DNA of 50,384 nt, from positions 1 to 50,384 of IMG/VR virus record IMGVR_UViG_3300030117_004591, one strand, 5' to 3'. The position numbers and the translations under genes are program-made. The notes under the pieces are model-generated. The model saw only the letters and a program-made list of their open reading frames with translations. It was not told the origin of the DNA and searched no databases. This stretch comes from a virus (taxonomy: Duplodnaviria; Caudoviricetes). Of this stretch, positions 28,393 to 47,400 are shown piece after piece (positions within the stretch are counted from its first letter, which is position 1; each line of letters opens with the position of its first letter).

Positions 28393-28422
28393 CTTATACT
28401 CCGTACCCCGCTAGGGGTTCGG

Positions 28423-28611
28423 TTAACTTACTCCTATATCGTCACTATTAATGACATTTAAAAAATCTTGCATCTCACTTGGGATGTCTAACTCTTCATC
28501 ATCTACTATAAGTTTATATTCATCTTCATCTGAGAATTGCTCTGATAAATGAACTATTTCACCCTTAGTAGAGTCATAATATACTCTTAATACATATTTC
28601 TTTATTGCCAT
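28423..28611 (-). CDS. Small acidic hypothetical protein, first gene of the late block
   Basis: ATG with AGGAG RBS. Confidence 0.75.
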   Translation of the reverse strand: MAIKKYVLRVYYDSTKGEIVHLSEQFSDEDEYKLIVDDEELDIPSEMQDFLNVINSDDIGVS

Positions 28612-28838
28612 ATTATCACTCCTAGATAGACCTAGCCCTGAGGAGCTAGTAAAGATTTTAACTTCTGAACTTCATCTTAGACCAGTAATTTCTCCCATAT
28701 CCTAGATTTATATCAGAGTCAGTTTTATCGGTTATTGGGGACAATCTAAATCTCTATATGAGTTAGCAACCCAACTTCTGATCCATTACACCCTTGCTAA
28801 GGTCACATGGATGATATTCTTAAGAATACCGATAAGCT

Positions 28839-28868
28839 AATATAATAGATAAAATATCAAAATACCAA
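28839..28868 (-). promoter_or_regulatory. Sigma70-like leftward promoter candidate (TTGGTA-18-TATATT)
   Basis: Located about 230 nt upstream of the first minus-strand gene. It has the same CTTG...TTATATT pattern as 34904-34933. Confidence 0.45.
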
Positions 28869-28921
28869 GAGGTTTTAAAAATTATGTAATTTTAGTGTGT
28901 GGTGTTATATAGTAGTAGTAC

Positions 28922-28958
28922 CCCTTTAAAAGGGATTATCAGTAACGTAATTACGTTA
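28922..28958. promoter_or_regulatory. Two adjacent palindromes at the strand-divergence point
   Basis: CCCTTT-A-AAAGGG (28922-28934) and a perfect 16-bp palindrome TAACGTAATTACGTTA (28943-28958). Confidence 0.6.
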
Positions 28959-29018
28959 TTTTTCATTTGTATTAAATATTGATTTAGTATTTTTAAATTA
29001 ATATAGGAGTAACATATT

Positions 29019-29282
29019 ATGCTATTATTTTCACTTGATCAGTTGACCAGTGAGCAACAAGCCATTGACATAGCGGATAGACTTGTCGATGAGGCAATAG
29101 AGGCTAGTACAGCTCAACGTAACAAGCGTAGAAAGATAAGGGCTGTCGAAGCTAAGATAAAGCGTGTACAAAAGAAATGTCTTGTAATGCAATGGTCTAA
29201 GCCTATCGAAAAGCTTAAGAGATCGTTTGAAATGCTTGAAGAAATGCGTGGTGAGCTTGATGTGCAAATGTGGGGAATATAG
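29019..29282 (+). CDS. Hypothetical protein, first early gene
   Basis: AGGAG RBS; 87 aa, helical. Confidence 0.8.
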   Translation: MLLFSLDQLTSEQQAIDIADRLVDEAIEASTAQRNKRRKIRAVEAKIKRVQKKCLVMQWSKPIEKLKRSFEMLEEMRGELDVQMWGI

Positions 29283-29294
29283 ATTATTCATAGC

Positions 29295-29331
29295 GTGTGT
29301 GTGAGTTTAGTCGACTTGCACACACCTCCTT
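29295..29331 (+). terminator. Hairpin after the first early gene
   Basis: 12-bp stem GTGTGTGTGAGT/ACTTGCACACAC followed by CTCCTTGT. Confidence 0.5.
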
Positions 29332-29453
29332 GTATGTATACTTGTGCCGTAATAAACCACGAAAGGTGTAGTGTAATAACAACCTACGATATGTGTATGT
29401 GTGTAAGATAATATATACCAACTTATACCAAACTATAAGATTTAGTAATACAA

Positions 29454-29666
29454 AGAGTCGCAAGAGTAACTCGACTAATTAAAAAAAGTTACTGATGTGA
29501 GTACTTACAGGTCAACTTGTACCTGTCAGGAAAATGTCTAAGATAATATGCGGATAACATAGCGGTTCAATACTGTGTAACAAGTTTATAAGAGATTGAT
29601 AGTCATGTGAAGATCATATATTGCTGAGGTAATCAATGCCAAACTTTATGTGTGACACATGACTCT
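29454..29666 (+). ncRNA. Putative structured RNA with pseudoknot
   Basis: Pairings AGAGTCG/TGACTCT, AGTAACT/AGTTACT and ACAGGT/ACCTGT. The loop AACTTGT is complementary to ACAAGTT (29580). No ORF. Confidence 0.6.
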
Positions 29667-29700
29667 CTTAAAATTAACCTAAACCATAAAAGGAGAAATA

Positions 29701-29946
29701 ATGTACGAAGAGCTAACCGAATGCCCTGATTGTAAAGAGCTGGCAACAATAACCAATTCAAGTTTTAATGCATCTATAAATTGTGGATGTGGAGTAGTAG
29801 AGATAGAGACTATGATAGAGGAAGACAGGTTATATCCTGTGTATCAGCAAGTCTTTGGATCATTTATTATGACTAAGTATGAAGATAGTCGTATTAAACA
29901 TTCTGGCAGACTCAAAAGCCTAAAACATAGGAGGACCAACAAATGA
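29701..29946 (+). CDS. Zn-ribbon-like hypothetical protein
   Basis: CPDC...CGC; AAAGGAG RBS. Confidence 0.8.
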   Translation: MYEELTECPDCKELATITNSSFNASINCGCGVVEIETMIEEDRLYPVYQQVFGSFIMTKYEDSRIKHSGRLKSLKHRRTNK

Positions 29947-30401
29947 TATATGAAATACTATTTTCAGTAGCTGGTGTTCTTATAATATTATTATTTATTA
30001 TGACTGATAAGTATCGAACCCAATTGAATCGTGCAAACAAGTGGAAGTCAGATTATTTCGCAATTAAATCAGTATTAGATGATGAGCGTAATAAAGTAGA
30101 TCTAGTAGCTAGACTGGCTGGTGTAAACTTGAAAGAAGCTGAAAAAGAGGCTAGAAAGAAAGGCTTGTGGAAAGAGCCTGAGCCTTGGATAGGACATCAC
30201 CCAATGGATGTAAATGAAGAGTGGTGGAAATACGAAACACGTAAAAGATCAGATGATAGTAAACCTAAAAAAAAATCTTTTAAAGATATTGATATAGCTA
30301 AGATAGCAGCTGAGATTAAAGCTAAAAAGAAAGGTTTATGGCCAGAGCCTGAGTCTTGGAAAGACAGAAACACTGGTGCCTTAAAGAAAAAACTTAAATA
30401 A
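29943..30401 (+). CDS. Membrane-anchored protein with an internal repeat
   Basis: N-terminal TM helix; ARKKGLWKEPEPW and AKKKGLWPEPESW. Confidence 0.8.
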   Translation: MIYEILFSVAGVLIILLFIMTDKYRTQLNRANKWKSDYFAIKSVLDDERNKVDLVARLAGVNLKEAEKEARKKGLWKEPEPWIGHHPMDVNEEWWKYETRKRSDDSKPKKKSFKDIDIAKIAAEIKAKKKGLWPEPESWKDRNTGALKKKLK

Positions 30402-30432
30402 CAACGTTGTTGTTTTAGATAACAATAAAAGA

Positions 30433-30467
30433 CCACCTTATATTATATAGCTAGTAATGTAAGGTGG
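30433..30467 (+). other. Stem-loop
   Basis: 13-bp stem CCACCTTATATTA/TAATGTAAGGTGG; no U-tract. Confidence 0.6.
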
Positions 30468-30493
30468 CACAGTAAATGATGAATGAATGATGT

Positions 30494-30948
30494 AAAGGAC
30501 ACGATGAATTAGTTATCTCGTGGATAAATAAAACTAACTAAAATTAAGATGTTAATATACAAGCTCCGATGTGCGACGGTACATCTCGGTTATGTGTATT
30601 TTAATTGGTAATGATGTGAACGGCTTGTTTCCAAAGGCCTACATCAGCATACTTTCGGTGTTGACTGACATGTCTATTAAATGATAGAGGTGTAAGAGCG
30701 TAACTAACTTAAGTATGGCGAGTGTTGAAACTAAATAACTAAAGAGATTTGGTTACGGTATAAACTATACTATGCTTGTTGTGAGCAGTATAGATACAAT
30801 ATGGATATAGTGTCCTTTGTTGATGCATAAGTGATGCAAAGCTTATGTAAGGCAAGTTACGACAGTAATTATTGTATGTATCGTGAGGCGAAAGCCCATA
30901 ACAACTAGACATTCTGAAGGTATCTCAAGTCCTTCACCAAGCATCTTA
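30494..30948 (+). ncRNA. Large, multi-helix putative non-coding RNA (~400-450 nt)
   Basis: ORF-free, with more than ten complementary segment pairs. These include nested long-range stems and a GGC-GAAA-GCC tetraloop (see findings). Confidence 0.75.
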
Positions 30949-30977
30949 TTATTAAATAATTTAAAAAGGAGAAATGT

Positions 30978-31136
30978 ATGAAAGCAGTAAAGTTTAGACA
31001 ATTAGTGTCAAAAATAGTTATTGAAGGCAATGCACCTGATAGTATTGCAAAAGAAATATTAGAATGGGCGAAAGAAAGCAAGCCTATAGTTAATCATAAG
31101 CAGAGCTGGTCTACTTCTTATAAAGGAGGCAAGTAA
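30978..31136 (+). CDS. Small hypothetical protein (52 aa)
   Basis: AAAAGGAG RBS; MKAVKFRQLVSKIV...; TAATG overlap with the next gene. Confidence 0.8.
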   Translation: MKAVKFRQLVSKIVIEGNAPDSIAKEILEWAKESKPIVNHKQSWSTSYKGGK

Positions 31137-31369
31137 TGAGTGATGTATATAAAATATCTCAAGCATTAGAGGATATGAAGAATTATTATGGGTTAAAAGA
31201 GATAAAAAATGTGACACTCAATATGAATGATGTTGAAGATGTCCACATTACATTTGTATCTAATAAACCTACTAATAACCTATTTAATGATATGGAAGGG
31301 CTGCCAGATAAGTTGACATATGTGTTGAAACTATCTATAAATGTGGGCAGTATATTTCCAAAGGAATAG
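31136..31369 (+). CDS. Hypothetical protein (77 aa)
   Basis: AAGGAGG RBS. Confidence 0.8.
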   Translation: MSDVYKISQALEDMKNYYGLKEIKNVTLNMNDVEDVHITFVSNKPTNNLFNDMEGLPDKLTYVLKLSINVGSIFPKE

Positions 31370-31375
31370 TCAAAT

Positions 31376-31903
31376 TGGGAGAAGTTTGGCTGTTTTGGGT
31401 TATTCCATACCCTTTTCCTTTTCAGCCTTGGTTGGCTTCTCCCATATTATTAGGGGAATAGCTACTCACCTAGCGAGGTTCTTTTCTGTCTTTCATACGC
31501 TTAAGAGCAACCTACTCACACTCGATATTCCCCTATTCCATTCAATGGTGAAGTCTACCAGGTAGTTCAGACAAAAGACTGGCGGCAGGAAGGAAAAAAT
31601 TAAAGCTGAGGCGGTAGTAGTGCACACCTAGATATAGTATATACGAAATCTATATCAACAAGGGAGCTATCGTTACATGTCTCTGCCTGTGAACATAAGT
31701 AGCAGGTAGAGAAAATTTAAACTTATGACCAACGCAAGGCACCGTATCGTAAAGGCGGAATAATGTCAGGTGGTAGGGTCTATGTGCTGAGTGTAACTAG
31801 ATGATTACTGAGTGACTCGAAATAACAGATGCTTACACTATCACGGCACGGGGACGACACGAAGATCACTCATCGAGTCCACGAGATAACTGTGGTTCGT
31901 CCC
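31376..31903 (+). ncRNA. Tandem cluster of structured RNA domains
   Basis: Successive closed stems at 31376-31444, 31451-31535, 31610-31674, 31680-31727, 31784-31849 and 31851-31903. G-U pairs are consistent with the plus strand. Confidence 0.7.
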
Positions 31904-31938
31904 AAAGAATTTTATTAATTAAAATAGGAGACTACGAT

Positions 31939-32265
31939 ATGTCAGTATTAGATAATGAAGTTAAAGCAAAAATAGTAGAAACTACCTCAATTGAAGCAAA
32001 TATAACTATCAAAAAGTTATTAGATATGATTTGCAAGCATTGGGAAAAGTGTATGGATAATTATTATGTGATGGAATCAGAGCCTGAACTATCAACCGAT
32101 GATTACAGTGACAGTATTACAGTAAATCTTAATACTTCAGACAGAGTTGATTTAAATCATGTAGTAGATGACGTTAGAATGTTATTTGAAGAAGAACTTG
32201 AAGAATACATTAAGAAACAAGAAGCATTGCAGTCTGTCGAAGAAGGTGAAAGTGGCAGCCTATAA
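31939..32265 (+). CDS. Acidic hypothetical protein (108 aa)
   Basis: AGGAG RBS. Confidence 0.8.
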   Translation: MSVLDNEVKAKIVETTSIEANITIKKLLDMICKHWEKCMDNYYVMESEPELSTDDYSDSITVNLNTSDRVDLNHVVDDVRMLFEEELEEYIKKQEALQSVEEGESGSL

Positions 32266-32428
32266 ATGTTATTATTGCAACACGAAGCTCACAGATACTT
32301 TTTACGCTAACTATTATTCTTATGAATACGATACGAGTAATATGTTGTGCGGAGATGGTAACTGTTGGGCTGAGTGGATGCAAGACAATACACAAGAGTA
32401 TACCATAGAGGAGGATGAAGATGAGTAG
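32252..32428 (+). CDS. Small Zn-finger-like protein
   Basis: GTG start after AAGGTG; CYYC...CGDGNC. Confidence 0.7.
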   Translation: MAAYKCYYCNTKLTDTFYANYYSYEYDTSNMLCGDGNCWAEWMQDNTQEYTIEEDEDE

Positions 32429-32561
32429 AAAAAGTGATTTAAATGCCTTTAAAGGCTTGGTAAGAAGAATAACTAACATGATATTTGGCTATAGGCCGAG
32501 GGGGGAAGATGACAGACCAAGAAAAAGACGTAAATCTAAACGATCCAAAGCAAAGAAATAA
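32421..32561 (+). CDS. Small basic protein (46 aa)
   Basis: GAGGAGG RBS; MSRKSDLNAFKGLVRRITNMIFGY...RKRRKSKRSKAKK. Confidence 0.6.
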   Translation: MSRKSDLNAFKGLVRRITNMIFGYRPRGEDDRPRKRRKSKRSKAKK

Positions 32562-32802
32562 GTATTGGACTAAAACAGCACAAAATGTTTTACTTGGAAG
32601 AAGGATACTAAGAGTAGAATATATGCAAGATAAAGAATGCAATGACTATGGTTGGTATAAGAAACCTATAACTTTTATACTAGATAATGGCACAAGAGTT
32701 ATAGCTATGCAAGATGATGAAGGAAATGATGGTGGCGTATTGACTTGTCTTACAGAAGAAAGGGAAGAAGTGCTACCTGTATTAAGCATAGGAGATGAAT
32801 GA
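32509..32802 (+). CDS. Conserved-looking phage hypothetical protein (DDEGNDGG motif)
   Basis: ATG at 32509 after GAGGGGG. Confidence 0.8.
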   Translation: MTDQEKDVNLNDPKQRNKYWTKTAQNVLLGRRILRVEYMQDKECNDYGWYKKPITFILDNGTRVIAMQDDEGNDGGVLTCLTEEREEVLPVLSIGDE

Positions 32803-33035
32803 TGACAAATAAAAGAAATGTTTTAAGACACGCTGGATTTAAATCTATAAAAGTATCTTTCAAAACTGAAATACCTGACGAATTCTTTGACAGATACTGC
32901 ATAAAACATAGAATTAATAGAAATCTAGCTGTAGCGCAACTAAAATCAGCTGCTATTAAAGCTGCAGATGATGAAATTAACACATTATTAATGGAGGTGC
33001 AAGATGTCCACAAAATTTATGATAACAGGGAATGA
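32799..33035 (+). CDS. Hypothetical protein (78 aa)
   Basis: AGGAG RBS; overlaps the previous stop. Confidence 0.75.
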   Translation: MMTNKRNVLRHAGFKSIKVSFKTEIPDEFFDRYCIKHRINRNLAVAQLKSAAIKAADDEINTLLMEVQDVHKIYDNRE

Positions 33036-33405
33036 TTTAGTAGATGGTGAACCAGAAAATTGCCAATATTGTGCTGTAGCTCTAGCTGTAGCCAGAGATA
33101 TAGTTACTGATTTACCTAATGCAGAGAATCTAGTACCTAATATAGATGGTGACGGTAATTTTTATGTTCAAGAAAAACTTAAAGATAATGATGGATTTAT
33201 AAACTATCAAGATAAATATTATCTAGAAATGGATTATGATATTAGTTCTGAGTTATGTGATTTTATATCTTGGTTTGATGTAACAGCTCATTCTGATAAT
33301 CAAGAAGTTGCTGAAGACTTTCAAGAACATGTGGTAAGGTATGATAAAAAACCTTGGGAAATAAACTGTAAAATAGTGGAGGTAAAAGATGCTAGATGTA
33401 GCTGA
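33004..33405 (+). CDS. Hypothetical protein with CxxC
   Basis: GGAGG RBS; GEPENCQYCAVALAV. Confidence 0.8.
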   Translation: MSTKFMITGNDLVDGEPENCQYCAVALAVARDIVTDLPNAENLVPNIDGDGNFYVQEKLKDNDGFINYQDKYYLEMDYDISSELCDFISWFDVTAHSDNQEVAEDFQEHVVRYDKKPWEINCKIVEVKDARCS

Positions 33406-33676
33406 ATTATTGCAAGTAAATGCAAAAATGAAAGAGGATTTAAAAGATGTTATCGAGCAAAATATAAATCTACAGCACGAACTTGGTAGGCATGAAGCTA
33501 TAACTAAAGAATTAGATGATCTTGAAGATCAATTATACCTACTCGAAGAAGTGCCTGATGAAGATTTATGGGAAGATGGTGAATTAAAGAAAGATGAAGT
33601 CTTTGATAAAATCAACTACCATTTATTTGTTGAAGGTGATTGGAAATTAATGAGGAGGAAAACAAATGAGCTTTGA
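33389..33676 (+). CDS. Acidic coiled-coil hypothetical protein
   Basis: GGAGG RBS. Confidence 0.8.
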   Translation: MLDVAELLQVNAKMKEDLKDVIEQNINLQHELGRHEAITKELDDLEDQLYLLEEVPDEDLWEDGELKKDEVFDKINYHLFVEGDWKLMRRKTNEL

Positions 33677-33959
33677 AAAAGATGCGTTAATGCATGAAAT
33701 ACAAGACCAAGTAGACAATTTCTACAGAGATAATATAGTTATTCCAATATATTGGAGAGAACAAAATGGTAGAAAAATATATGATCTTGAATACATGCAA
33801 AGTGAGTTTGATAAACATATGGAAAAACTGTGGGATATTAACTCTAAAGAAGATTGTTATGCATGTGCCACTCAAAGACATGCTTGTGAACACGATAATT
33901 GGGAAGACTATCAATGTGGCAATGATGAGGCTCCCCGCAAAGAAGAAGGAGAATTCTAA
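33666..33959 (+). CDS. Hypothetical protein (97 aa)
   Basis: GAGGAGG RBS; IPIYW...IYDLEYMQSEF. Confidence 0.8.
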   Translation: MSFEKDALMHEIQDQVDNFYRDNIVIPIYWREQNGRKIYDLEYMQSEFDKHMEKLWDINSKEDCYACATQRHACEHDNWEDYQCGNDEAPRKEEGEF

Positions 33960-34489
33960 TGGAAAAATTACAATACATAGAGCTAGGGCCTAAAGAATCT
34001 TGGCCCAAATCATCATATGCTTCTGAAAATGGTAAAAATGAAGTAGGTGAATATGGAAATTGGTATGATTATCTTAATATAGATAGAAGAAATGAAGCTA
34101 TTAAAGGAATGAAAGCCTTGAGAGAGCAATGCCTTAGAAAAGGTACCAATATTAAGAAAATAGTTATAGAATATTCTGGATATGGAGATTCTGGTGATGA
34201 AATCTACGCTTATGTTGATAATGATGGTAAATATGAGTGGGGAGGATTCCCTGGAAACGATGAAGGCGATTGCCCTGAATTAAAGAAAACATTAGGTGAT
34301 AAAGCTGAAAATATGGTGTTTGACGCCTTATTTCAACTACTTCCTGGTGGCTGGGAAATCAATGAAGGTTCTCAAGGCCATCTGATATGGGATATTGTTA
34401 ATAATAAAGTAGAAGTTAATCACGAATGGAACGTTAGAAGTGTCGAACATGAAGATTCTGTAGCTGAGATTAGTTTTGAAGGCGTTTAA
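33959..34489 (+). CDS. DUF6878-like protein
   Basis: Motifs IEYSGYGDSG and PGGWEINEGSQG. Confidence 0.7.
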   Translation: MEKLQYIELGPKESWPKSSYASENGKNEVGEYGNWYDYLNIDRRNEAIKGMKALREQCLRKGTNIKKIVIEYSGYGDSGDEIYAYVDNDGKYEWGGFPGNDEGDCPELKKTLGDKAENMVFDALFQLLPGGWEINEGSQGHLIWDIVNNKVEVNHEWNVRSVEHEDSVAEISFEGV

Positions 34490-34835
34490 TCATTGCAAGT
34501 CTAGTAAATCTAGATTTGGAGGCAAAGAAGAAGACTATCATGCTATACATGCTTGGTTTGATGAATCTAAAGCACATGTGCCAGACATCAGACATAGAAT
34601 GTTAAGGCATCATAGTCAAGGGATAGAAGAATGCGAGAAAACCTTTGGTATATATCTGCAAAATAGCGATGGAAAAAAAGTGCCAGTGAAATCTATAGCG
34701 GAGCAGCACATACTGGAAGACCTAGGGTTTATTCCTACATTACAAGACTGGATATCTAATATCTATATAAAATCTTGGATGAATCACGGACAAGGAAAAC
34801 GTGGTGCAAGGAACAAAAAATTGAATCTGGCGTGA
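34476..34835 (+). CDS. DUF6915-like protein (His-rich)
   Basis: H..SS..RFGG..EDY..IH.WFDESK....RHR..RHH..GI..CE..FG...VPV..IAEQH..EDLGFIP...DW. Confidence 0.8.
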   Translation: MKAFNHCKSSKSRFGGKEEDYHAIHAWFDESKAHVPDIRHRMLRHHSQGIEECEKTFGIYLQNSDGKKVPVKSIAEQHILEDLGFIPTLQDWISNIYIKSWMNHGQGKRGARNKKLNLA

Positions 34836-34849
34836 TTCTATCGTGGTCT

Positions 34850-34901
34850 AAGAGAGCTGGAATTATAACACACAAGTAGCTTATTATTCTAGCTCTCTTT
34901 T
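34850..34901 (+). terminator. Terminator-like stem-loop ending the small-gene cluster
   Basis: Stem AAGAGAGCTGGAAT/ATTCTAGCTCTCTT followed by T residues. Confidence 0.65.
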
Positions 34902-34904
34902 CCC

Positions 34905-34933
34905 TTGTTTGTATCAGAATCTATCCTTATATT
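34905..34933 (+). promoter_or_regulatory. Sigma70-like promoter candidate for the replication operon (TTGTTT-17-TATATT)
   Basis: Directly after the terminator; 17-nt spacer. Confidence 0.55.
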
Positions 34934-34966
34934 GTGAAGCAAGTTTATTATAAAATAGAGGGAAAT

Positions 34967-35125
34967 ATGCCTACAAATTCTGAAATCGATGATGCTGTAA
35001 TCAAGACTTATTTAGAAATATATTTGAATGCTTTAAATGAACAAAAGTCATATAAATATATAAATATAATTAAGTCTAGAATACAAGAGCTGCTTCAGAA
35101 ACGAATGTACATTTTATCAAAATAA
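34967..35125 (+). CDS. Small hypothetical protein (52 aa)
   Basis: ATG at 34967 after GAGGG; preferred over the track's GTG at 34934. Confidence 0.65.
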   Translation: MPTNSEIDDAVIKTYLEIYLNALNEQKSYKYINIIKSRIQELLQKRMYILSK

Positions 35126-35138
35126 ATAAGGAGAATCC

Positions 35139-35600
35139 ATGGAAGAGAAAGAAATTCCACAAGGGGATAGTGCCCCCAAAATCGTACCAATAAGAAATGA
35201 AAAATGGATGTCAGATAATATAGAAAAGCTAGCAGATGCTCTGTCAAGAGCACAATCAGAAATGAAAGGTGCGCAAAAGAAGTCTACCAATCCTTTCTTT
35301 AAATCTAGCTATGCTGATCTACATACATGTATTGAAGCATCCTTTCCACATCTTACCAAACACGGATTATCTGTGATACAAGGTAATGATGTAGATGAAA
35401 GAGGAAGTTTTTATGTCACAACTATGTTACTACATAGCTCTGGACAATGGATAAAATCTAAATTGAAAATGCCTATAACAAAAGCTGATGCACAAGGTGT
35501 AGGAGCTACTATAACATATGCACGTAGATTTGCTTTATGTGCAATGGTAGGTATTTCTCAGTATGACGATGACGGTGAATCAATAACTAATCATAAATAA
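35139..35600 (+). CDS. erf: ERF-family ssDNA annealing protein
   Basis: Motifs NPFFKSSYADL, TMLLHSSGQWI and QGVGATITYARRFAL...GI...DDDG. Confidence 0.95.
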   Translation: MEEKEIPQGDSAPKIVPIRNEKWMSDNIEKLADALSRAQSEMKGAQKKSTNPFFKSSYADLHTCIEASFPHLTKHGLSVIQGNDVDERGSFYVTTMLLHSSGQWIKSKLKMPITKADAQGVGATITYARRFALCAMVGISQYDDDGESITNHK

Positions 35601-35610
35601 GGAGAAAAAG

Positions 35611-36165
35611 ATGGCCATAAAAACAATGCAAGCAGGTGGTGGCGGAGGTGAAAAGTTCGCTGAAGGATGGCACGAAGTGTCTATATCTAAAGCTGAAACT
35701 GGAACTTACGGCACTGGTGATGCAGAAAAAGCATATATTGAAATAAATATGCAAGATTATCCTGATAATATGAGTTTTAGAGTGTATGAAACATTCAATA
35801 AAACTACTAATGAGGAGTTTAAAGTTGCTAATTTATTCAAACATGCTAACGCTGGTATTGTTGGAGTATTGAAAGACCCTAATGGCAAGAACCCATTAAT
35901 TCAATATGATGACGATCCAAAGAATCTTGTAGGTAAAACTATTCAAGTTTATATCTATAAAGAACAAAAGACTGGTAACGGATATAGTAGAGTATTTGAT
36001 ACTGTCGCCCCTGTAACACAGGAAGGTGAGCACATATCATATACACCTGAACAAGTTGCTAGTATCAAGAATAGTATTTTCAAGCAAGTAGAAAAGAAAA
36101 TGGAAGCAGAAGCTAAGTCAGCACCTGCAACTACTGGATTATCTGCTGAAGAAATACCCTTCTAA
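35611..36165 (+). CDS. Probable single-stranded DNA-binding protein
   Basis: OB-fold-like pattern (EGWHEVSI, LVGKTIQV), acidic C-terminal EEIPF tip, adjacent to erf. Confidence 0.7.
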   Translation: MAIKTMQAGGGGGEKFAEGWHEVSISKAETGTYGTGDAEKAYIEINMQDYPDNMSFRVYETFNKTTNEEFKVANLFKHANAGIVGVLKDPNGKNPLIQYDDDPKNLVGKTIQVYIYKEQKTGNGYSRVFDTVAPVTQEGEHISYTPEQVASIKNSIFKQVEKKMEAEAKSAPATTGLSAEEIPF

Positions 36166-36176
36166 ATAAAAAACTG

Positions 36177-36351
36177 AAAAGAGAGCCAATAACTGGTCCT
36201 CCTGTAAAGTTTTCCCACAAAACTATAGATGGGATGGAAACAAAGACACAAGCATAGTCTTTACAGGGAAAATAAGTCCTACCGATAGAACATTATATTT
36301 ACGAATATAAGTTACTATTTTAAGGCAAAGGAATATGTGAGGCTCTCTTTT
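36177..36351 (+). ncRNA. Multi-branch structured RNA between the SSB gene and the primase operon
   Basis: 11-bp closing stem AAAAGAGAGCC/GGCTCTCTTTT; CCTGTAAAG/CTTTACAGG; TTATATT-TACG-AATATAA hairpin. Confidence 0.7.
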
Positions 36352-36369
36352 ACAACCAGAGGAGACCCA

Positions 36370-36639
36370 ATGTACGGATTACCAAAGAAACAGAAATATA
36401 CAGTCAGGAATCATATAACAGACTTTTTAAAAATGAAATTAATGCAAAATACTAAATTCTACACACATGACATTCAAAACCTATCTAATGCATGGTTTGC
36501 ACGTTTTAATCACAGATTAGGTAGCACTGAAACTTATACTAGAGAATTTAGAAGAATGAGATTAGATGAAATTATAGAAGTTGAAAAACTAAATAGAGTT
36601 AATAAAGAACAGCTCTGGAGGATAAAAGGAATTAAATGA
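36370..36639 (+). CDS. Probable winged-helix DNA-binding protein
   Basis: ATG at 36370 after GAGGAG; STETYTREFRRMR recognition-helix-like segment followed by a beta hairpin. Confidence 0.55.
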   Translation: MYGLPKKQKYTVRNHITDFLKMKLMQNTKFYTHDIQNLSNAWFARFNHRLGSTETYTREFRRMRLDEIIEVEKLNRVNKEQLWRIKGIK

Positions 36640-38369
36640 TAAAAGAATACGCTTTTGGCTTAGCAAATAGACATCATTTTGGAGATATATCTGAATTAGA
36701 TAATTGGGCAGGAATGGCTCAAGATACATTTATGTCTTTGTGGGATTATGATGGGCATGTTGTTGAGTATGTTAAAGAAAAGAAAACTTTATCTAGTTAC
36801 GATGGAATATTATATATGCCAGACGAGTTTATATTAGATGTAGACGGCACTAATCCAGAAAATGCAAAACAAAAAGCTATTGGCTTAACTATATTGTTAG
36901 ACGATTTATGCATACCATATCAGCCATACTTTTCTGGCACAGGATTTCATTTAGGAATACCTGGTCAAGCGTTTAGATGGAAACCGTGTCCAGATTTGCA
37001 TTTAAAAGTAAAAGAAGAACTCATGTCTAAAGGCATATACGAATATGCAGATTCATCTGTATCAGATAAGACAAGACTTATTAGAGTAGTAAATACATTA
37101 AATAGTAAATCTAAATTATGGAAAATACCGTTAAGTAAAGCTGAATTAAATGGCTCTATTGAAGAAATTCAAAAGCTAGCATCAGGTAAAAGACATAATT
37201 ATGAATGGATTACATTAGAATGTGAGCCCGCATTTGATGTATTAAAAAGAAAAACTAAAGGCAGTGATAAGAAATTTGAAACTGTAACTTTAGGTAGAAA
37301 TCCTGATCCTGTATGGTATCCATGTATCCAAAAGATGTTAGACGGCAGTCCTCAAGGTTCTAGGCATCAATTGGCTCTACGGATAGCTGCACACTTAAGA
37401 TGGAGGTATCCAGAACATGTAGTTAGAATTATCATGGAAGATTGGAGGCAAAGAGTTGATATTAAATCTCATCCGTTTAGCAAAAATGAGATGGATAAAA
37501 TAGTAACTGATTGCTATGAAGGTCATAATGGTAACGGCTATAATTATGGTTGCAGCGATGTTTGGATGGATAAAAACTGTCAATCTACTTGTAGGTTGTA
37601 TAAAGCTAAAGCTTCTCAAAATACTATGGATGCAGCAAGTATGGAAAAAGAACTTGTTGAGTTTCTTACTAGGGACCACAATCCAATTAATATAGGCGAA
37701 GCTTATGGTGGTGATTATCCTGTGTATCCAGGTGAAGTGGTTATCATACAGGCTCCTCCTAAATCTATGAAGACTATGTTATTGCAAAATTGGGTAAATA
37801 CCTTTAAGCGTAACACATATTTCTTAGAAATGGAGATGAGTCCAAGACAAATGTGGATGAGATTTGTTATGATAAATAATAAATGGAACGAAGAGCAATT
37901 AAAAGAGTATTACAGTCAGTATTCTAACGGAATCAGCAAAGACTTTGACTGGCTAACCGTAGATTACAGTAGTTGTTTTGCTCATGAATTGCAAAAGCGT
38001 ATACAAATGCTTCCTCAGAAACCTGAGATAGTAGTTGTAGACCACATGGGCTTGTTTAAAAGCAAGAGAACAGATAATAATATGAAAGTAGAGGAGGTTT
38101 CTCAGTCATTAATGGAGCTTGCTATACATAATAATATTATTGTATTTGCTGTATCTGAGATAACTAAATCAGCTTATAACGAAGGAATGAATATTGCGTC
38201 AGCAAAAGGCTCGTTTCGTATTGCTTATAATGCTAATAAAGTTATATCTATAACACCATTTAAAGATAGTGATAATCTTATACAAATGTTGAAAGTAGAG
38301 AGTACAGCTAATAGAGAGAAAGAAAATCTTGATGTTCAGCTTAATGTTAAGGGAGCTATTATAGGATGA
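36636..38369 (+). CDS. Primase-helicase fusion (AEP primase/PrimPol + Cys-rich PriL-like region + RecA/DnaB-like ATPase)
   Basis: AEP motifs ILDVD, FSGTGFH and D...SDKTRLIR; YPCI...GC....NC...C; degenerate Walker A APPKSMKT; Walker B VVVDH. Confidence 0.85.
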   Translation: MIKEYAFGLANRHHFGDISELDNWAGMAQDTFMSLWDYDGHVVEYVKEKKTLSSYDGILYMPDEFILDVDGTNPENAKQKAIGLTILLDDLCIPYQPYFSGTGFHLGIPGQAFRWKPCPDLHLKVKEELMSKGIYEYADSSVSDKTRLIRVVNTLNSKSKLWKIPLSKAELNGSIEEIQKLASGKRHNYEWITLECEPAFDVLKRKTKGSDKKFETVTLGRNPDPVWYPCIQKMLDGSPQGSRHQLALRIAAHLRWRYPEHVVRIIMEDWRQRVDIKSHPFSKNEMDKIVTDCYEGHNGNGYNYGCSDVWMDKNCQSTCRLYKAKASQNTMDAASMEKELVEFLTRDHNPINIGEAYGGDYPVYPGEVVIIQAPPKSMKTMLLQNWVNTFKRNTYFLEMEMSPRQMWMRFVMINNKWNEEQLKEYYSQYSNGISKDFDWLTVDYSSCFAHELQKRIQMLPQKPEIVVVDHMGLFKSKRTDNNMKVEEVSQSLMELAIHNNIIVFAVSEITKSAYNEGMNIASAKGSFRIAYNANKVISITPFKDSDNLIQMLKVESTANREKENLDVQLNVKGAIIG

Positions 38370-38566
38370 AAAACATACTATATAAAGTAAATAATATAGT
38401 AAGGTACACTTTATGTGGCAGTTGTGAAAAGGGAATTGAATGGGAGTATGAATTAGATCATGCTCCTAATCATTCCTTGTGCTACTGTATACATGAAAGC
38501 TATCCAAATTTAATTAAACAGTTTATAAAACGAAAAATAAGGAGAAAGGATGAACCCATATTCTGA
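38366..38566 (+). CDS. Small Cys-containing hypothetical protein
   Basis: CGSC...CYC; ATGA overlap with the previous gene. Confidence 0.65.
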   Translation: MKNILYKVNNIVRYTLCGSCEKGIEWEYELDHAPNHSLCYCIHESYPNLIKQFIKRKIRRKDEPIF

Positions 38567-39341
38567 TATAAGAAAAGTACCTCTTGATTACCAAGGGATA
38601 CAATCAAATGCTTATTCTGTGCAAAGACAGGATATAGATAAAGAAGGGCAATTTAAATGGAAGGAAGTAGGTACAGTTAGCAATAACTATCTACTTATCG
38701 ACAATGCTAGAGTAAGAAATATGGCTGAAGAAATAGCTACTAATTCTAATTTAAACATGGAAGAAGAGAAAACATTCTTTGATGGTAGAAGATATGCTAT
38801 AAGCTATATAGCTAGAGATAATAGTATTGGAGAAGTTGCTCCTGGTGATCCCGTAGCTATTGGATTCCAAATGTGGAATAGTTATGATGGTAGCACATCT
38901 TTAGGATTTAAAATGATGATATATAGACTTGTTTGTACTAATGGTATGATGAGTCACGATGTATTAAATAAATATAGATTCAGACATAGTCCTGATAGTG
39001 AAAACTGGGAAGAAGAGCTAGAGAAAGTATCTGGTATTCTTCAGGCTGGTGGTGAAGGTAGACATAGTTCAGTTAATCAGATGATATCTAGCTTCAAAAG
39101 ATTAAATACAGCTCAAGTTGATGTAAATGAATTAAGTGATATAAGATTTAATCACTTAGATAACATTCCTACGGGAACTTGGGGATCTGTAGTAGATAGA
39201 TTTCTAACTAAAGGTAATTCTGGATGGGATCTATTGAATGCAGCAACAGATGAATTATGGCATAAAGAAAAGCCGACAGTTGCATCATACAATCATAATG
39301 CTACAATAGTAGATGGATTGTGTAACTGGGTAGCAGCATAA
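38550..39341 (+). CDS. DUF932 (LGT_TIGR03299-like) family protein
   Basis: VGTVSNNY.L..N, NSYDGSTS...YRLVCTNGM...RH, W.LLNAAT. Confidence 0.88.
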   Translation: MNPYSDIRKVPLDYQGIQSNAYSVQRQDIDKEGQFKWKEVGTVSNNYLLIDNARVRNMAEEIATNSNLNMEEEKTFFDGRRYAISYIARDNSIGEVAPGDPVAIGFQMWNSYDGSTSLGFKMMIYRLVCTNGMMSHDVLNKYRFRHSPDSENWEEELEKVSGILQAGGEGRHSSVNQMISSFKRLNTAQVDVNELSDIRFNHLDNIPTGTWGSVVDRFLTKGNSGWDLLNAATDELWHKEKPTVASYNHNATIVDGLCNWVAA

Positions 39342-39344
39342 AAT

Positions 39345-39745
39345 TATAGGTGTCTACGAGCGTAAAACATAATCCCAAGGGTATCCAAGCGTGCATGTAC
39401 GGAGTGAATCCAATGGGCGGTGTGAATAATTAATAGAGTCCGCAGGTGATGCATCAGTCATTTAATTGGCAGCCAATAAAGTAACATAACGGTAACTGTT
39501 ACACGTTAATTATTCAACCTGACGAGGTTATAGAGACATAAGAGAGGGAAACTAATAGCTGTGCTCAGCTCTCACCTATATTGAATTGCTGTCCCATGGC
39601 GATAGTATTTGAAGACTAGGCTACAATGTATAAATCCGATGTCGGCTCATTGCGAGAGACTAGGAGGGCAGCAATAGAATTGTGGAGGCCTGAAGAATTT
39701 TTCGTTGAAAATGACGACAAGATATGCTAACTTTAGGCCTCTGCA
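39345..39745 (+). ncRNA. Three tandem structured RNA domains
   Basis: Closing stems TATAGGTG/CACCTATA (39345-39580), ATTGCTGTCC/GGGCAGCAAT (39585-39675) and a 15-bp TGTGGAGGCCTGAAG/CTTTAGGCCTCTGCA (39681-39745). Confidence 0.7.
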
Positions 39746-39763
39746 TTAACTTTGGAGGGATTA

Positions 39764-39886
39764 ATGAGTAAAGTCGAAAAAAATAGACTTAAAAAGCAAA
39801 TTCTAAGGCTAATTAAGAAAAAAAGAAATAGAGAAGCTGGGCTATTAATTCAAAGGTACAAAAGTAAGTACGGAGAACTAAGCTAA
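39764..39886 (+). CDS. Small basic protein (40 aa)
   Basis: GGAGG RBS; TAATG overlap with the next gene. Confidence 0.7.
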   Translation: MSKVEKNRLKKQILRLIKKKRNREAGLLIQRYKSKYGELS

Positions 39887-40155
39887 TGAAAGAAATAAGT
39901 AAAGGATTTCTTAGAAAAGACACTAAAGCATATAGACCAGATAAGGAAACTGGTAAATGGAGAGGTGTTGAAACTAAAAATGGTCAGTTTGCTACTATAA
40001 AGCCTGGCTGGTTTGGAGAATTGACCATAAATAAAAAATCACATAAAATAGAAATATGGGCTTTCAATACAAAATGGGGAGCTCAAAGTTTGTTTTACAA
40101 AATAACTGAAAATACAGATAAAAAGGAGGATTATGACAGATCATCAGAGTTCTGA
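39886..40155 (+). CDS. Hypothetical protein (89 aa)
   Basis: GGAG RBS; beta-rich. Confidence 0.8.
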   Translation: MKEISKGFLRKDTKAYRPDKETGKWRGVETKNGQFATIKPGWFGELTINKKSHKIEIWAFNTKWGAQSLFYKITENTDKKEDYDRSSEF

Positions 40156-40480
40156 ATATCAAATTGAAGTACGATATCCTAAAACTTTAAATAAGTTTAA
40201 GCAAATTCAAAAAGAGCAATTAGAATTGTTCTGTAAAAAGCAATTAGATTATGGTCCAAGTAATATAGGTCTAGGAAAATCAAAACCTGAAAAACCTGAA
40301 GATATAAGGCTATCAGCAATGGGGCTAGGTATACGTATGCAAGATAAAATATCTCGCTTTTTAAACCTGTCTATGAACGATAAAGAGCCTAATAATGAAA
40401 GCTTAGATGATACTTTAATAGATATAGCTAATTATGCTATAATGGGTTTAATAGTTAGAAACAAAAAATGGGGGAAATAA
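40133..40480 (+). CDS. DUF1599 / nucleotide-modification-associated domain protein
   Basis: LFCKKQLDYG..NI...IRMQDKISR..NL...ESLDDTLIDIANYAIM. Confidence 0.88.
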   Translation: MTDHQSSEYQIEVRYPKTLNKFKQIQKEQLELFCKKQLDYGPSNIGLGKSKPEKPEDIRLSAMGLGIRMQDKISRFLNLSMNDKEPNNESLDDTLIDIANYAIMGLIVRNKKWGK

Positions 40481-40659
40481 TGCCTACAAAAAAGAAAGAA
40501 AGCGAAAAAGCAGTAAAACAGTCTAAAAAAATAGACTATAAAATATCTAAAGAAGATATGGATAAGTTGTATGATGTTATAAATGAAATGCAAGAAAACT
40601 TAAACTATGTAAATGATAAGCTTGCAAGAATAATAGATAGGATGGGTTTAAACATATGA
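40480..40659 (+). CDS. Small coiled-coil protein
   Basis: ATG at 40480 in a TAATG overlap. Confidence 0.75.
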   Translation: MPTKKKESEKAVKQSKKIDYKISKEDMDKLYDVINEMQENLNYVNDKLARIIDRMGLNI

Positions 40660-40934
40660 AAAATAAACAAACAAGAAAACCTACAAATCTCGAATTAAAA
40701 ACAGCAATAAACAATCTTATTATGGAATTGGGCTATATACAGCAAGGAATGCGAAATTTAGATTCTATAGTTTCTGCTTATATAGACTATAATGAAGATA
40801 CAAATAAGTTTAAAGAATGGTTAAAAGCAAAATATAACGAGGAGAAGAATGAACCAAACACAGAAAACACTACAAAGAGCTCTAAAGGAGATTCACAAGC
40901 TAAAGTCAGAAATATCAAATCTAAAAAAGCATAA
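40656..40934 (+). CDS. Hypothetical protein (92 aa)
   Basis: ATGA overlap; KPT..EL motif. Confidence 0.75.
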   Translation: MKNKQTRKPTNLELKTAINNLIMELGYIQQGMRNLDSIVSAYIDYNEDTNKFKEWLKAKYNEEKNEPNTENTTKSSKGDSQAKVRNIKSKKA

Positions 40935-41079
40935 AGCCGAAGAAGTTGTTCCAATAATAGATTCTAAGAATCTTGTAAAATCTAGAGTAGATGAAATATG
41001 CTCAGATAGAGAAAAAGCTTTAGAAAGACTTTCAATTAAATTATTTGGGAGGGTCTATGCCAAGCAAGAGCAAAACTAA
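40849..41079 (+). CDS. Hypothetical coiled-coil protein (76 aa)
   Basis: GAGGAG RBS. Confidence 0.7.
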   Translation: MNQTQKTLQRALKEIHKLKSEISNLKKHKAEEVVPIIDSKNLVKSRVDEICSDREKALERLSIKLFGRVYAKQEQN

Positions 41080-41374
41080 AGGAAATACATTTGAAAGATT
41101 AATAGTAAATAAGGCTAAAGATCTTGGTCTTAAAGCTAAAAGAGCTTGGGGGTCTAACGGTCAATCTATAGGTTGGCACGAAGAAGTAGATGTTCTTATA
41201 GATGAGCACTTTACAATACAAGCTAAATGTCGTAAAAAATTAGCAGACTTTTTAATTCCTAGCGAACATGTTGACTCGGTAGTATTCAAACAAGATAGAG
41301 GTGAAACTTTGATATTATTAAGGTTTGACGATTTCTTAAAAAATCATTACATGAAACCAAGGAGTAAAAAATGA
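41057..41374 (+). CDS. Holliday junction resolvase (archaeal Hjc-like PD-(D/E)xK nuclease)
   Basis: SKTKGNTFER...EVDVLI...IQAK; ATG at 41057 after GGAGG. Confidence 0.85.
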   Translation: MPSKSKTKGNTFERLIVNKAKDLGLKAKRAWGSNGQSIGWHEEVDVLIDEHFTIQAKCRKKLADFLIPSEHVDSVVFKQDRGETLILLRFDDFLKNHYMKPRSKK

Positions 41375-41559
41375 AATATGGAAACAATATGGCAGGAATG
41401 ACATGGAGCAAAGGATATAAAGCCTTATGGCTGTATCCTATAGGTTTTGAAGTATTTAATAATCCTGATATGGATTTATTTGAAATAAGCTTCATAATAC
41501 AACCTCTTGCATTTTCATTCAACATAAGGTCTAATATTACACTATTTAGAAACGACTAA
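41371..41559 (+). CDS. Hypothetical protein (62 aa), last plus-strand gene
   Basis: AAGGAG RBS. Confidence 0.65.
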   Translation: MKYGNNMAGMTWSKGYKALWLYPIGFEVFNNPDMDLFEISFIIQPLAFSFNIRSNITLFRND

Positions 41560-41566
41560 AAAATAT

Positions 41567-41616
41567 GGCGTAGGTAGTTCCTATATTAATTTAAAACTAC
41601 TATCTGCGCCTATTTT
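41567..41616 (+). terminator. Stem-loop at the convergence of the two gene blocks
   Basis: 12-bp stem GGCGTAGGTAGT/ACTATCTGCGCC followed by TATTTT; an A-rich tract lies on the other side. Confidence 0.65.
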
Positions 41617-44408: not shown

Positions 44409-47400
44409 TTAACATTTTCTACCAACTTCTCTTTGGTCTAATATATTCTCTACAACTTTTTTATTCTTATACTCTCTCCAGTCACGATAATTGTTTCTTT
44501 CAGTCTTACCAGTGCTAGGATCTATTGTATCTATTTTAACGTCTTTATTAACAATAATTTCTTTATTAAGAATATTCGTCAAATAAGGATGAGCGTAAAA
44601 AGTACCAGTCCATCTAGCTAAAAATTTCCAAGTACCTGCCATATCTCCCAATCTGTCAAAATTATAATTGTCAGTTTTATAGGCATCACGCTCAATTGGA
44701 CCTTTCATTTCTCTACCAGATGCAACAGATTCCCAATCTCTCATTGTTTTTTCAACCCAACTTCCCCTATTATTAGATTCTGCATAGTCAAAAACTGTTT
44801 TAATTAAATGATCGTCCATCTTATAAGAAGGCATTTCATAACCTTTTTGAATCTGAATTCTTGTAGGCGATATCTGTGGCTGTATTAAATAATTTAATAA
44901 GAAATCTACAGGTTCCCCTGGAATATTTTGTGTTACTTCAGGAGCCCATTTATCTAAAAACAATCTAATTTTTTCATACTCTATAGTTCTATCAATAAGA
45001 AAAGTTTCATCCAATAAAGTTCTTTGGTCAAACGCTCTATCTAATGTTTTTCTATAACCTCTAGATATAGAGTTTCTTAAATCTAAAGCATTTTGAACAA
45101 ACTGCTCTACTAAACTTTCGTCTTTAATAAATGCATTAGGTGATTTTTTATGACCACCATAAGTTACTTCAAATAAAGCATTAGCATATCTTAATTCTAC
45201 TGAGCTTGAGCTTGCTCTGCTTGTAGGGTTTGTATCGACTATATAAGTATAATTAGCATCATACCTTATTCTGTCTCCATATTTATAATATCCGACAAAT
45301 TCTAGCTGACTATTATCAACTCTAGCCCTTGTACCTTTCCAGTCTAAAACATGGTCGTATAAATTTCTAGGTTTTTGCGGAATACTGCCGTCAGCTTTTG
45401 CTAAAGGATCAGGCCTTACATCGCCTTTTACTTTAAAAACTGCAACTCTGTTTTTAGAATTTGGATTAGACCTTTTAAATGTTTGGTTTCCTAGATTTTT
45501 AGGCTTCCATATATTTTCTTTATTATTAGTCATGCCGCTTTTCTTTACAGATAAATCTTTAGCTATTTGAACATCTAATATATCCATTGCTTTTTGTAGA
45601 TTAATAGCTCTGTCTTGCAATTTTTGTATTTTATATGGGTCCATAAAGCCTTTATTAGCACTTCTAAAGCTAGAAATAGTTTGAAGTATACCCATATACT
45701 GTTTTTCTACAACATCCCTTAATATGCCTTTATGAATAGCTGATGAAAGCTCACCTTTTCTACCTACATGAGGGTTACCAAAAGACTCTATGTTAATATC
45801 ATCTAGTCTAGTAATATCTATTAGCCTACCTTCATCATTAAACATTCTAGCTTCTGCAACAAAAGACTCTATGTTTCTAACAAAATAACCTAAAGCATTA
45901 TTTATTTTTCGAGTAGGGTTTTTTATACCTTCAAAATTCTTTTCGTGAAAAGCGGGAGTTTTTACTAGTCCATCAAATATTTTACCAGAAATAGAAAAGT
46001 CAAAACCTGATGTCCCTGATACAATGTTGTCCCAATTAAAATCTCTATTTATAAATTTATCTCTTTTCCCATTTACAATATCTTTATATAGTTGATTTCT
46101 AGTGTCAGGCTTATTGTATGCTGCATAATTTTCTCCATAAAACATATCAACGTATTGTGTCACTAATTCATCTACGCCTGCTTTTTGAGCATCTGTTCCA
46201 TATTTTTTATAAAAAGATATGCGAGATTTAATGGCATCTGCTATATAAGCACTAGGGTCTGCAAAAAGTCTTTCCATTCTCGAATGGTCTTTTTTAAGCT
46301 CCCAAGGTTCAGGCTTTCTTGGTCCTACTTCATCGTAGGTACCCCCAAATACTTTATTAGGAGATCTTAAAGCTCTAAATATTGCATATACAATTTCTCT
46401 TTCAATAGCTCTAGTTCCTTTAAACTCGCTCATTCCAGATAAAATTGTTTTTTCATTACTAGTAACACCTTCTTGACCTAAATGCCTCATTAGATTAGCG
46501 TCACCTCTGCCTTCTCTTTGAGCTCTAAAATATTCTGCTCTCATACTAGATTCCATAATATCAAAAAGCAAAAAGTCTTTTAATTGTTGTGTTTTCTGAA
46601 ATACATCATGTATACCATCGTGTATATCTACTGAATTTTGGAACATATCATACATTTTATCTAAGAATGCCCAACTATCATTGTTTTTATTAGCTATATT
46701 TGAAAATTTCTTAAATAACTGCTCTCCTCTATAGCTAAGCTGCATTTCACTTGCCCAAGATAAAGCTGACCTTAGCCCTATAACTTGACCTATAATCATT
46801 TTTGAAGAATGAATTCTATTAGCATATTGATGGAATCCAGCCTGATGTGATTTTGCTGAAGAACCAGCTCTCATAACTTCTCTACCGTCAACAGTTTCTC
46901 TGTTTAATCCAAAAATATTGATAGACTCTAAGTTTAAATTGTTACTAGCATCCCACATTCTAAAGTCATCTTTCTTTCCAGCTTCTCTTAGAAATTGCCT
47001 CATAATGCTTCTTGGGTATCTAGTGTGAAAATAAAAATGGTCACCGTCATTATCTCTTTGAAGGACAGTTCTTAAATCATGATTATTTATTTCAGTTAAC
47101 CCGTTCATATTGTCAAGTATTCTTTCAATTTTAAGAATTACTTTATCGTGACCTATTGCTGGTATAGCGTTACCCATACCTGCTACCCATACTTTTTTCA
47201 AAATTCCATCTTTTACAGTGCTTGCTTTTAGACCAACTAAATTGTTAAGGCCTTTAGGATCTCTACTAGAAACTTTTTTACCTTGCATTAAATTGATAAC
47301 ATCATGCAGTGTGAGCTGATGATTTACAACTAAATTGTCCAATTCTTTAAGAGCAAGCTCTACTTTCATAAGTTCTTTTGCTGAAATTGCAAGATCTTTT

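Follow-up and report, generated by a model that had tools for sequence, protein, structure and literature searches.

Structured and exchangeable RNA elements between the early genes of an uncultured marine phage: a probable RNA island

Six stretches that lack open reading frames (ORFs) are interspersed among the early and replication genes of the virus record IMGVR_UViG_3300030117_004591 (Duplodnaviria; Caudoviricetes), and here they were analyzed as candidate structured RNAs. The window, by which we mean the whole record of 50,384 bases, is ~95% complete. Its late genes, among which the portal and the large terminase were identified, are located on the minus strand (1–28392) and are followed by a plus-strand module (~29019–41559), with the GC skew switching sign at both ends of the module. 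The products of the module are an Erf-like annealing protein, a single-stranded DNA-binding protein (SSB), a primase/DnaB-like helicase and many small proteins without a family, and for 14 of 20 proteins no PHROG match was obtained. There was also no PHROG or Pfam match for the giant proteins encoded on the minus strand at 44409–50384 (1,923–1,991 aa) and 41610–44390 (926 aa); the 1,923-aa protein is the one that had been taken for a virion RNA polymerase in an earlier reading of this DNA without database searches (the sequence-only reading). The virus appears to have no close cultured relative: no DNA match to cultured phages was found for the region or for the RNA described below as motif-1, the best cultured-phage match of the primase was to a Moorella phage at 27.8% identity, and the terminase was 27% or less identical to those of cultured phages.

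The ORF-free stretches, all treated as plus strand, were designated G1 (29283–29700), G2 (30402–30977), G3 (31370–31938), G4 (34836–34967), G5 (36166–36336, with a true end at 36371) and G6 (39342–39751, which consists of five modules). They sum to 2,276 of 10,456 nt (21.8%), which bears out the claim of the sequence-only reading that about 2 kb of a ~10.5-kb region is free of ORFs, and its description of the remainder of the genome as tightly packed also held, as at most ~1,976 nt (7%) of the late part (1–28392) lie between ORFs when these are counted from 80 aa upward. In G1, G2, G3 and G6 each of the six frames is interrupted by two or more types of stop codon; reassignment of a single stop therefore cannot explain these gaps and was ruled out. 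Relatives were collected with the primase as the query, which yielded 97 related stretches; 80 of them, at 59–98% identity, were retained as loci, and the gap sequences were found to be patchily conserved among these 80 primase-bearing loci. The ORF-free share of the early region was 0.09–0.30 in 13 relatives versus 0.22 in the window, and the trait thus belongs to the lineage. The closest relative spanning G1–G3, denoted G002, does not retain the ORF at 31341–31565 that overlaps G3.

Closed, self-complementary domains, as claimed in the sequence-only reading, were seen in the folds, and many of them act as units when relatives are compared. That reading had named folding no better than dinucleotide-shuffled controls as an outcome that would speak against it, and by this measure G1, G2, G4 and the full G5 stood out, whereas G3 and G6 did not. 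The fold z-scores were −3.83 for G1 (0 of 100 shuffles as good; in a second run, −4.30 on the plus versus −1.77 on the minus strand), −4.40 for G2 (0 of 100; second run, −4.2), −3.27 for G4 on the plus strand (34836–34967) and −3.29 for the full G5 (36166–36371; 0 of 200), while G3 was marginal against dinucleotide shuffles (−1.76 and −2.0) and G6 reached −2.29 (2 of 100; second run, −1.7). Fourteen coding windows of 450 nt from the same strand served as controls and had a mean z of −1.73 (standard deviation 1.16), with a minimum of −3.85, so thermodynamics alone cannot separate the gaps from genes; fold energy is weak evidence, and it is the comparison with relatives and the covariation that carry the case. 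The coding sequences of the Erf-like protein and SSB (35150–36099) themselves fold at z −3.85 and −3.20, matching the best gaps. The plus strand folded better than the minus strand in five of the six gaps, the exception being G5, which had been folded with its 3′ arm cut off. No repeats common to different gaps were found, and promoter and terminator scans gave no excess: the intrinsic-terminator scan returned three sites versus 5.2 ± 2.9 expected, none of them on the plus strand within a gap. K-mer enrichment in the gaps relative to coding sequence revealed nothing decisive (ATAAC occurred at 4.3 versus 1.8 per kb).

The strongest comparative data were obtained for the 3′ part of G3, which reappears in other phages at different positions and which we refer to as motif-1 (31715–31916, plus strand), a pseudoknotted RNA of ~190 nt. 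A degenerate pattern taken from its best-conserved part matched 24 stretches in viral contigs and 52 in metagenome contigs, with no matches in the cellular genomes of 185,579 species. The motif-1 structure was derived by hand from visible covariation and single-sequence folds, and a covariance model built on that structure (R1) gave 25 matches in 98 sources. From these a second model (R2) was built, which gave 77 matches in 99 sources, one per locus and all marine viral or metagenomic. The 75 full-length matches scored 108–169 bits and the two that were cut by contig ends scored 84 and 60; among the 99 sources there were no weaker matches down to E 0.1. Within the window motif-1 is single copy, with a score of 165.5 bits and a runner-up of 11.4. 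Its helices are P1, with P1a as a variable hairpin, and those of two arms, a long one formed by P2-P3-P4 and another by P5-P5a, and in the pseudoknot the P4 loop (31812–31819) pairs with the internal loop of the P5 arm (31874–31882). Across 66 distinct sequences, 94.4% of the alignment cells at paired positions can pair, versus 76.2% when shuffled (reached by 0 of 500 shuffles) and 32–45% when slid, and double-sided, compensatory changes were present in 28 of the 36 pairs. The first alignment had given similar values (94.3% paired; double-sided changes in 30 of 40 pairs). Complementarity in the pseudoknot is kept in at least nine distinct sequence versions, and the cognate duplex has an energy of −7.78 kcal/mol, compared with −5.36 ± 0.28 when partners were permuted (0 of 1000 permutations as good). 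An earlier run had given −8.61 for cognate versus −6.84 for permuted partners (0 of 500 as good), and an initial test with ill-placed windows had shown no difference between cognate (6.12) and non-cognate (6.17) pairs.

Motif-1 commonly begins directly at the stop codon that ends the ORF before it. Downstream of it there is either an ORF within 11–28 nt, as in 6 of the 22 copies for which sequence farther downstream was available, or a further 100–580 nt without ORFs, and the genes on its 3′ side are not conserved; motif-1 is thus not tied to one gene. When considered as a riboswitch, it has a conserved, aptamer-like core with a pseudoknot, but the class of the downstream gene is inconsistent, and no alternative pairing that would form a terminator or hide the ribosome-binding site or start codon was seen for it.

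From ~31441 to the ribosome-binding site, G3 is near-identical in the window and G002, save for two swapped hairpins: the differences cluster in two patches, each of which is one hairpin exchanged for an unrelated hairpin. The proteins that flank G3 are only 62% and 67% identical between the two phages, and the gene downstream differs, so that by sequence comparison G3 appears to be better conserved than its flanking genes. An intron of one gene was also considered for G3 and was ruled out by that difference in the following gene. Upstream of motif-1, G3 is made up of further elements. Motif-2 (31452–31534) is a three-way junction. Its closing stem (9 bp) and the hairpin whose loop is CUCACC are invariant or nearly so in 11 aligned sequences, and its middle hairpin is exchanged in relatives for at least six different self-complementary sequences. 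Of 11 aligned relatives, 7 have motif-3 (31535–31599), which follows motif-2, and 3 lack it. Between motif-3 and motif-1 is an insert of two long hairpins (31600–31714) that is present or absent as a block: it was found in G002/L115 and L123, and it is missing from L091 and L096, where motif-3 abuts motif-1.

The second large element is the G2 RNA (~30553–30936, with the best-supported part at 30778–30936), which is preceded in the same gap by two opening hairpins identified from folds (30406–30426 and 30433–30467). Homologues of the G2 RNA were found in six loci, namely L181 (score 199), L154, L140, L087, L021 and L123. When RNAalifold was applied to plain MAFFT alignments, 48 pairs with 26 compensatory ones were obtained from five sequences, and 36 pairs with 14 compensatory ones from four. 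A pattern for the conserved G2 loop matched 20 stretches, of which only one (L181) was homologous. The position of the G2 RNA is filled differently in other phages: in L121, where each gene has its syntenic counterpart in the window, the slot holds manA, as it also does in L127, and in G002 it is occupied by GOLLD plus a tRNA-like element. The view that G-U pairs mark the plus strand was upheld in both large elements, as G-U outnumbered A-C by 131:13 in motif-1 and by 40:3 in the G2 RNA, an excess which indicates that the RNA is that of the plus strand.

The five modules of G6, M1 (39342–39423), M2 (39424–39517), M3 (39518–39588), M4 (39589–39673) and M5 (39674–39751, with a hairpin at 39680–39745), are gained and lost whole in close relatives; L001 has M1, M3 and M5, L002 has M3 to M5, and L003 has M2, M3 and M5. 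An invariant core of ~67 nt in M2 is enclosed in three phages by three unrelated self-complementary closing stems, and the stem of M5 has a compensatory change from C-G to U-A. The word CUGACGA in M3 was considered as a possible hammerhead and rejected, given that there is no stem II, the word is in a simple hairpin loop and there is no Rfam match.

Two further elements are clamps of the same sequence type, in which the arms start AAGAGAGCC and finish GGCUCUCUU, the interiors span 12 to ~190 nt and a U-rich tail follows. The G4 clamp hairpin (34850–34901) has arms that begin AAGAGAGC and end GCUCUCUU, and these are kept in seven close relatives around an interior of 12 to ~90 nt; the small ORF adjoining G4 (34968–35125) is kept in four of the seven. 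The G5 clamp element (36177–36351) has an 11-bp closing stem, and in nine copies of G5 the 21 nt at the 5′ end and the 21 nt at the 3′ end are invariant, with a structured interior that is hypervariable in length and sequence. The 16-mer at the 5′ end of G5 was present in 37 of 163 loci, three of which have it twice; the window has a single copy. Over 19 nt, the 3′ arm and tail of G4 (34892–34910) show 84% complementarity to the beginning of G5 (36168–36186), which is likely due to both having the same clamp sequence, and may also allow a long-range G4–G5 pairing that would bracket the Erf and SSB genes.

G1 opens with a 13-bp hairpin (29295–29325). It also contains a 22–25-mer (29412–29433) with an internal direct repeat (TATACCAAC / TATACCAAAC), which occurs once per genome and does not vary among the 13 related phages that were aligned, although their flanks are dissimilar; it could be an operator, an origin or a promoter of the RNA island proposed below. 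This 22-mer is followed in several relatives, within 20–650 nt, by a tRNA-Met gene. Further downstream, a domain at ~29447–29603 is common to the window and one metagenome locus (L120), and 8 of its 20 predicted pairs have changed on both sides between these two sequences.

None of the elements in the window matched Rfam at gathering scores, nor credibly at E up to 5 over positions 28400–41700. Specifically, neither GOLLD (RF02032; gathering score 150 bits) nor ROOL had a match in the window at gathering or in that interval at E up to 5, manA (RF01745; cut-off 55.2 bits) had no match in the window, ARAGORN reported no tRNA or tmRNA genes there and Rfam no such elements, and no Rfam match was obtained to self-cleaving ribozymes (hammerhead, twister, pistol, hatchet and hepatitis delta virus-like) or to group I and II introns. 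For motif-1, the lack of an Rfam match in the window extends to 20 loci that bear it. The relatives, of which 43 related loci were scanned with Rfam, do carry known RNAs. GOLLD was found at 173.4 bits in G002 and L115, and L092 has a GOLLD-like match (112.6 bits, E 4e-29) ~900 nt upstream of motif-1; manA was above its cut-off in L121 (59.4 bits) and L127 (56.7 bits) and just below it in L162; and in G002, L115 and L154 the ends of the tmRNA model are matched by an 82-nt stretch, which we refer to as the tRNA-like element. tRNAs were detected by Rfam in nine loci, and by ARAGORN a tRNA-Met(CAT) in 12 of 28 relatives, as a single gene in the early region (for example, L056 2798–2868, L011 2417–2490 and L181 3078–3151). 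GOLLD, with the adjacent 82-nt tRNA-like element, and manA (L082 2509–3013 on the minus strand, L115 12625–13129, L092 141–547, L121 1116–1315 and L127 61–260) are likewise in the early region of the relatives, at 0.5–1.5 kb from motif-1.

The claim that the gaps are under selection was supported by covariation in motif-1, the G2 RNA and the closing stem of M2, and by the exchange of hairpin for hairpin in motif-2 and P1a. The gaps of the window carry structure that is selected on the plus strand and conserved, their modules are gained and lost whole, and their slots are equivalent between relatives. At least five elements or sets of elements (motif-1, motif-2, the G2 RNA, the G4/G5 clamps, and M2 with M5) appear, from comparison of their sequences, to belong to conserved families in which base pairing is selected. 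With six ORF-free slots on the plus strand that hold structured RNAs and differ in content among relatives, the locus has the features of a phage RNA island, and we consider it probable (roughly 60%) that the ORF-free stretches are an RNA island of exchangeable structured-RNA cassettes that act as RNAs themselves. Under such a scheme, the slots between the early and replication genes would hold cassettes of independently folding RNAs that are read with those genes, each closed by stems of freely changing sequence, which would give insulated folding, and each carrying replaceable peripheral hairpins. Cassettes would be gained, lost and exchanged among related marine phages, with GOLLD, manA, the tRNA-like element and tRNA-Met filling the same slots in relatives. 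The RNAs would be synthesized early, within long transcripts together with the early genes, and they would then be released, or be stable, as separate RNAs that act in trans on host or phage machinery, which by analogy with the tRNA and GOLLD neighbors is most likely translation-related. The modules would be neither leaders of specific genes nor DNA sites. The sequence-only reading was supported in part: structured, modular plus-strand elements under selection were confirmed, and its suggestion that a polycistronic early transcript is cut into multiple sRNAs, decoys or ribozymes is conjectural.

Several observations weigh against an island of independent RNAs. The support for the G2 RNA, the M2 stems and the G1 domain rests on two to five sequences each. 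Fitting of the motif-1 alignments to the model biases them toward pairing, and RNAalifold on a plain MAFFT alignment of motif-1 recovered P5 only (10 pairs); the pairing margin and the variety of pair types are nevertheless large. The insert at 31600–31714 folds with 34 pairs and no compensatory changes, as its copies are nearly identical and offer no informative variation, and no homologues were found for G1 ahead of 29447 or for G2 ahead of 30553, the parts 29326–29410 and 30468–30552 having none in the loci searched. The fold z-scores of G3 and G6 are within the range of the coding controls. The invariant ends of G5 and the 22-mer of G1 could be DNA sites bound by proteins. Lastly, every large gap ends 10–30 nt before a ribosome-binding site, which would also fit a role in cis.

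That role is the main rival, and we regard it as somewhat unlikely: the modules would be cis-acting parts of early mRNAs, such as processing sites, 5′ stabilizers, translational operators or riboswitch-like leaders for the next gene. The last structured domain of each large gap does stand at that short distance from a ribosome-binding site and start codon, the minority of motif-1 copies with a closely following ORF have the arrangement of a leader, manA, which relatives carry in the same position, has been published as a candidate riboswitch, and U-rich tails end the G4 and G5 clamps. Against it, the genes that follow the modules vary: the window and G002 have the same G3 before different genes, and many loci have the long ORF-free interval after motif-1. 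In addition, neither a terminator nor pairing that would hide a ribosome-binding site was seen, terminator-like sites being no more numerous than expected, and the invariant loops, junctions and pseudoknot exceed the needs of a stabilizer.

It seems to us improbable that the elements act as DNA. They would then serve as an origin of replication, as promoters or operators, or as sites for packaging or recombination; alternatively, they would be small mobile cassettes bounded by inverted ends. Such a role would account for the single-copy 22–25-mer with its internal repeat in 13 of 13 phages, for the position of the invariant G5 ends next to the primase-helicase operon, for the palindromes of 10 and 11 bp in M2, and for the appearance and disappearance of modules between close relatives. 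For the elements that covary, however, a role at the DNA level is unlikely because of the strong one-sidedness of the G-U pairs and the long-range pseudoknot, which, like the closing stems, covaries with free sequence in a manner unlike double-stranded DNA sites; moreover, the elements are single copy in each genome, and no family of repeats links the gaps. The possibility that the gaps are decayed genes or neutral spacer, with structure arising from chance or base composition, is scarcely credible for the locus as a whole. The modest z-scores of G3 and G6 agree with it, as does the fast turnover of the surrounding early genes (14 of 20 without a PHROG family and one without relatives), but the gaps are better conserved than the adjoining genes, compensatory change is extensive in motif-1 and the G2 RNA, all frames are shut by mixed stop codons, and motif-1 is retained in 77 stretches from ocean metagenomes. 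Decay or chance is already contradicted for motif-1, motif-2, the G2 RNA and M2, and it is possible for the parts without homologues, 29326–29410 and 30468–30552, to which it would be limited.

A bolder proposal, which we put forward tentatively and consider unlikely, is that motif-1 represents a novel RNA class with catalytic or ligand-sensing activity, for example a self-cleaving ribozyme that frees neighboring cassettes from the early transcript, and that the island is an exchangeable RNA-only toolkit, including GOLLD, which is deployed at the start of infection. Motif-1, at ~190 nt and with 77 copies, has invariant junctions and a pseudoknot that covaries, a degree of complexity that is typical of ribozymes and riboswitches. 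If the toolkit proposal were true, studying the whole RNA set could reveal the purpose of GOLLD-type RNAs.

Structured RNAs in the early regions of phages are not without precedent. RNase III processing hairpins lie between the early genes of phage T7, and the tRNA region of phage T4 yields stable small RNAs. Like these, the RNAs of the window are structured, lie between early genes and would be contained in long transcripts, from which some of the T7 and T4 RNAs are released in stable form; in a comparison of general features, the window elements differ in being larger and pseudoknotted, with conserved loops and junctions. Closer parallels are GOLLD and ROOL, which the preprint of Kretsch et al. 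describes as phage and prophage RNAs of unknown function that are often near tRNA islands, are among the largest bacterial and phage RNAs, and were recently shown to form RNA-only cages; one marine GOLLD in that preprint is downstream of a Met-tRNA. The window RNAs resemble them in being phage-borne, intergenic, large and multi-domain, with unknown function and with tRNA or tRNA-like genes nearby in relatives, but they belong to other families and are smaller (~80–390 nt each), and the window itself has no tRNA. manA was presented by Weinberg et al. (2010) as a riboswitch candidate of marine phages and cyanophages that is tied to particular gene classes. Motif-1 is similar to it as a marine phage RNA of comparable length (~190–200 nt) with a proposed pseudoknot, and the two are found on the same contigs, but motif-1 and the G2 RNA differ from manA in sequence and helices, and motif-1 has no link to a gene class. 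Fremin, Bhatt and Kyrpides (2023; PMC10690425) reported 8,495 novel candidates of 29–151 nt from IMG/VR intergenic regions with support from covariation; the study uses the same kind of data source and method as ours, with candidates shorter than motif-1 and the G2 RNA, and parts of the window motifs may be among these anonymous candidates.

With regard to novelty, the sequence-only reading had put the locus forward as its best candidate for an undescribed system, and this stands for the RNA families and not for the arrangement. The window RNAs appear to belong to no described family among those that could be compared, a comparison that did not extend to Ocean-VI, a published marine motif without an Rfam accession, and no description of these motifs was found in full-text searches of the literature, the supplements of PMC10690425 and PMC2864571 being outside that scope. 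Phage islands of tRNAs and large ornate RNAs are, on the other hand, already in print (Kretsch et al. preprint), and relatives of the present phage fill the same slots with GOLLD, manA, the tRNA-like element and tRNA-Met. The lineage is widespread in ocean metagenomes, and these known RNAs are interchangeable in its fixed slots with several undescribed ones. The fixed slots therefore constitute a natural comparative series, in which one can ask which RNAs replace, and which always accompany, one another.

Some additional features of the region were noted. The 152-aa ORF between G1 and G2 (29943–30401), whose product had no relatives among viral contigs, contains an internal direct repeat of 62 nt (30131–30192 and 30302–30363; 77% identity). 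The divergent intergenic region between the late and early genes, G0 (28612–29018), is ~70% conserved in ~20 viral and 11 metagenome loci, and it folds slightly better on the minus strand (z −2.2) than on the plus strand (z −1.8). The entire plus-strand module is flanked by a 24-nt inverted repeat (28985–29008 and 41579–41602; 96% complementary), each copy of which directly precedes a ribosome-binding site, that of the gene starting at 29019 on the plus strand and that of the ORF at 41525–41286 on the minus strand.

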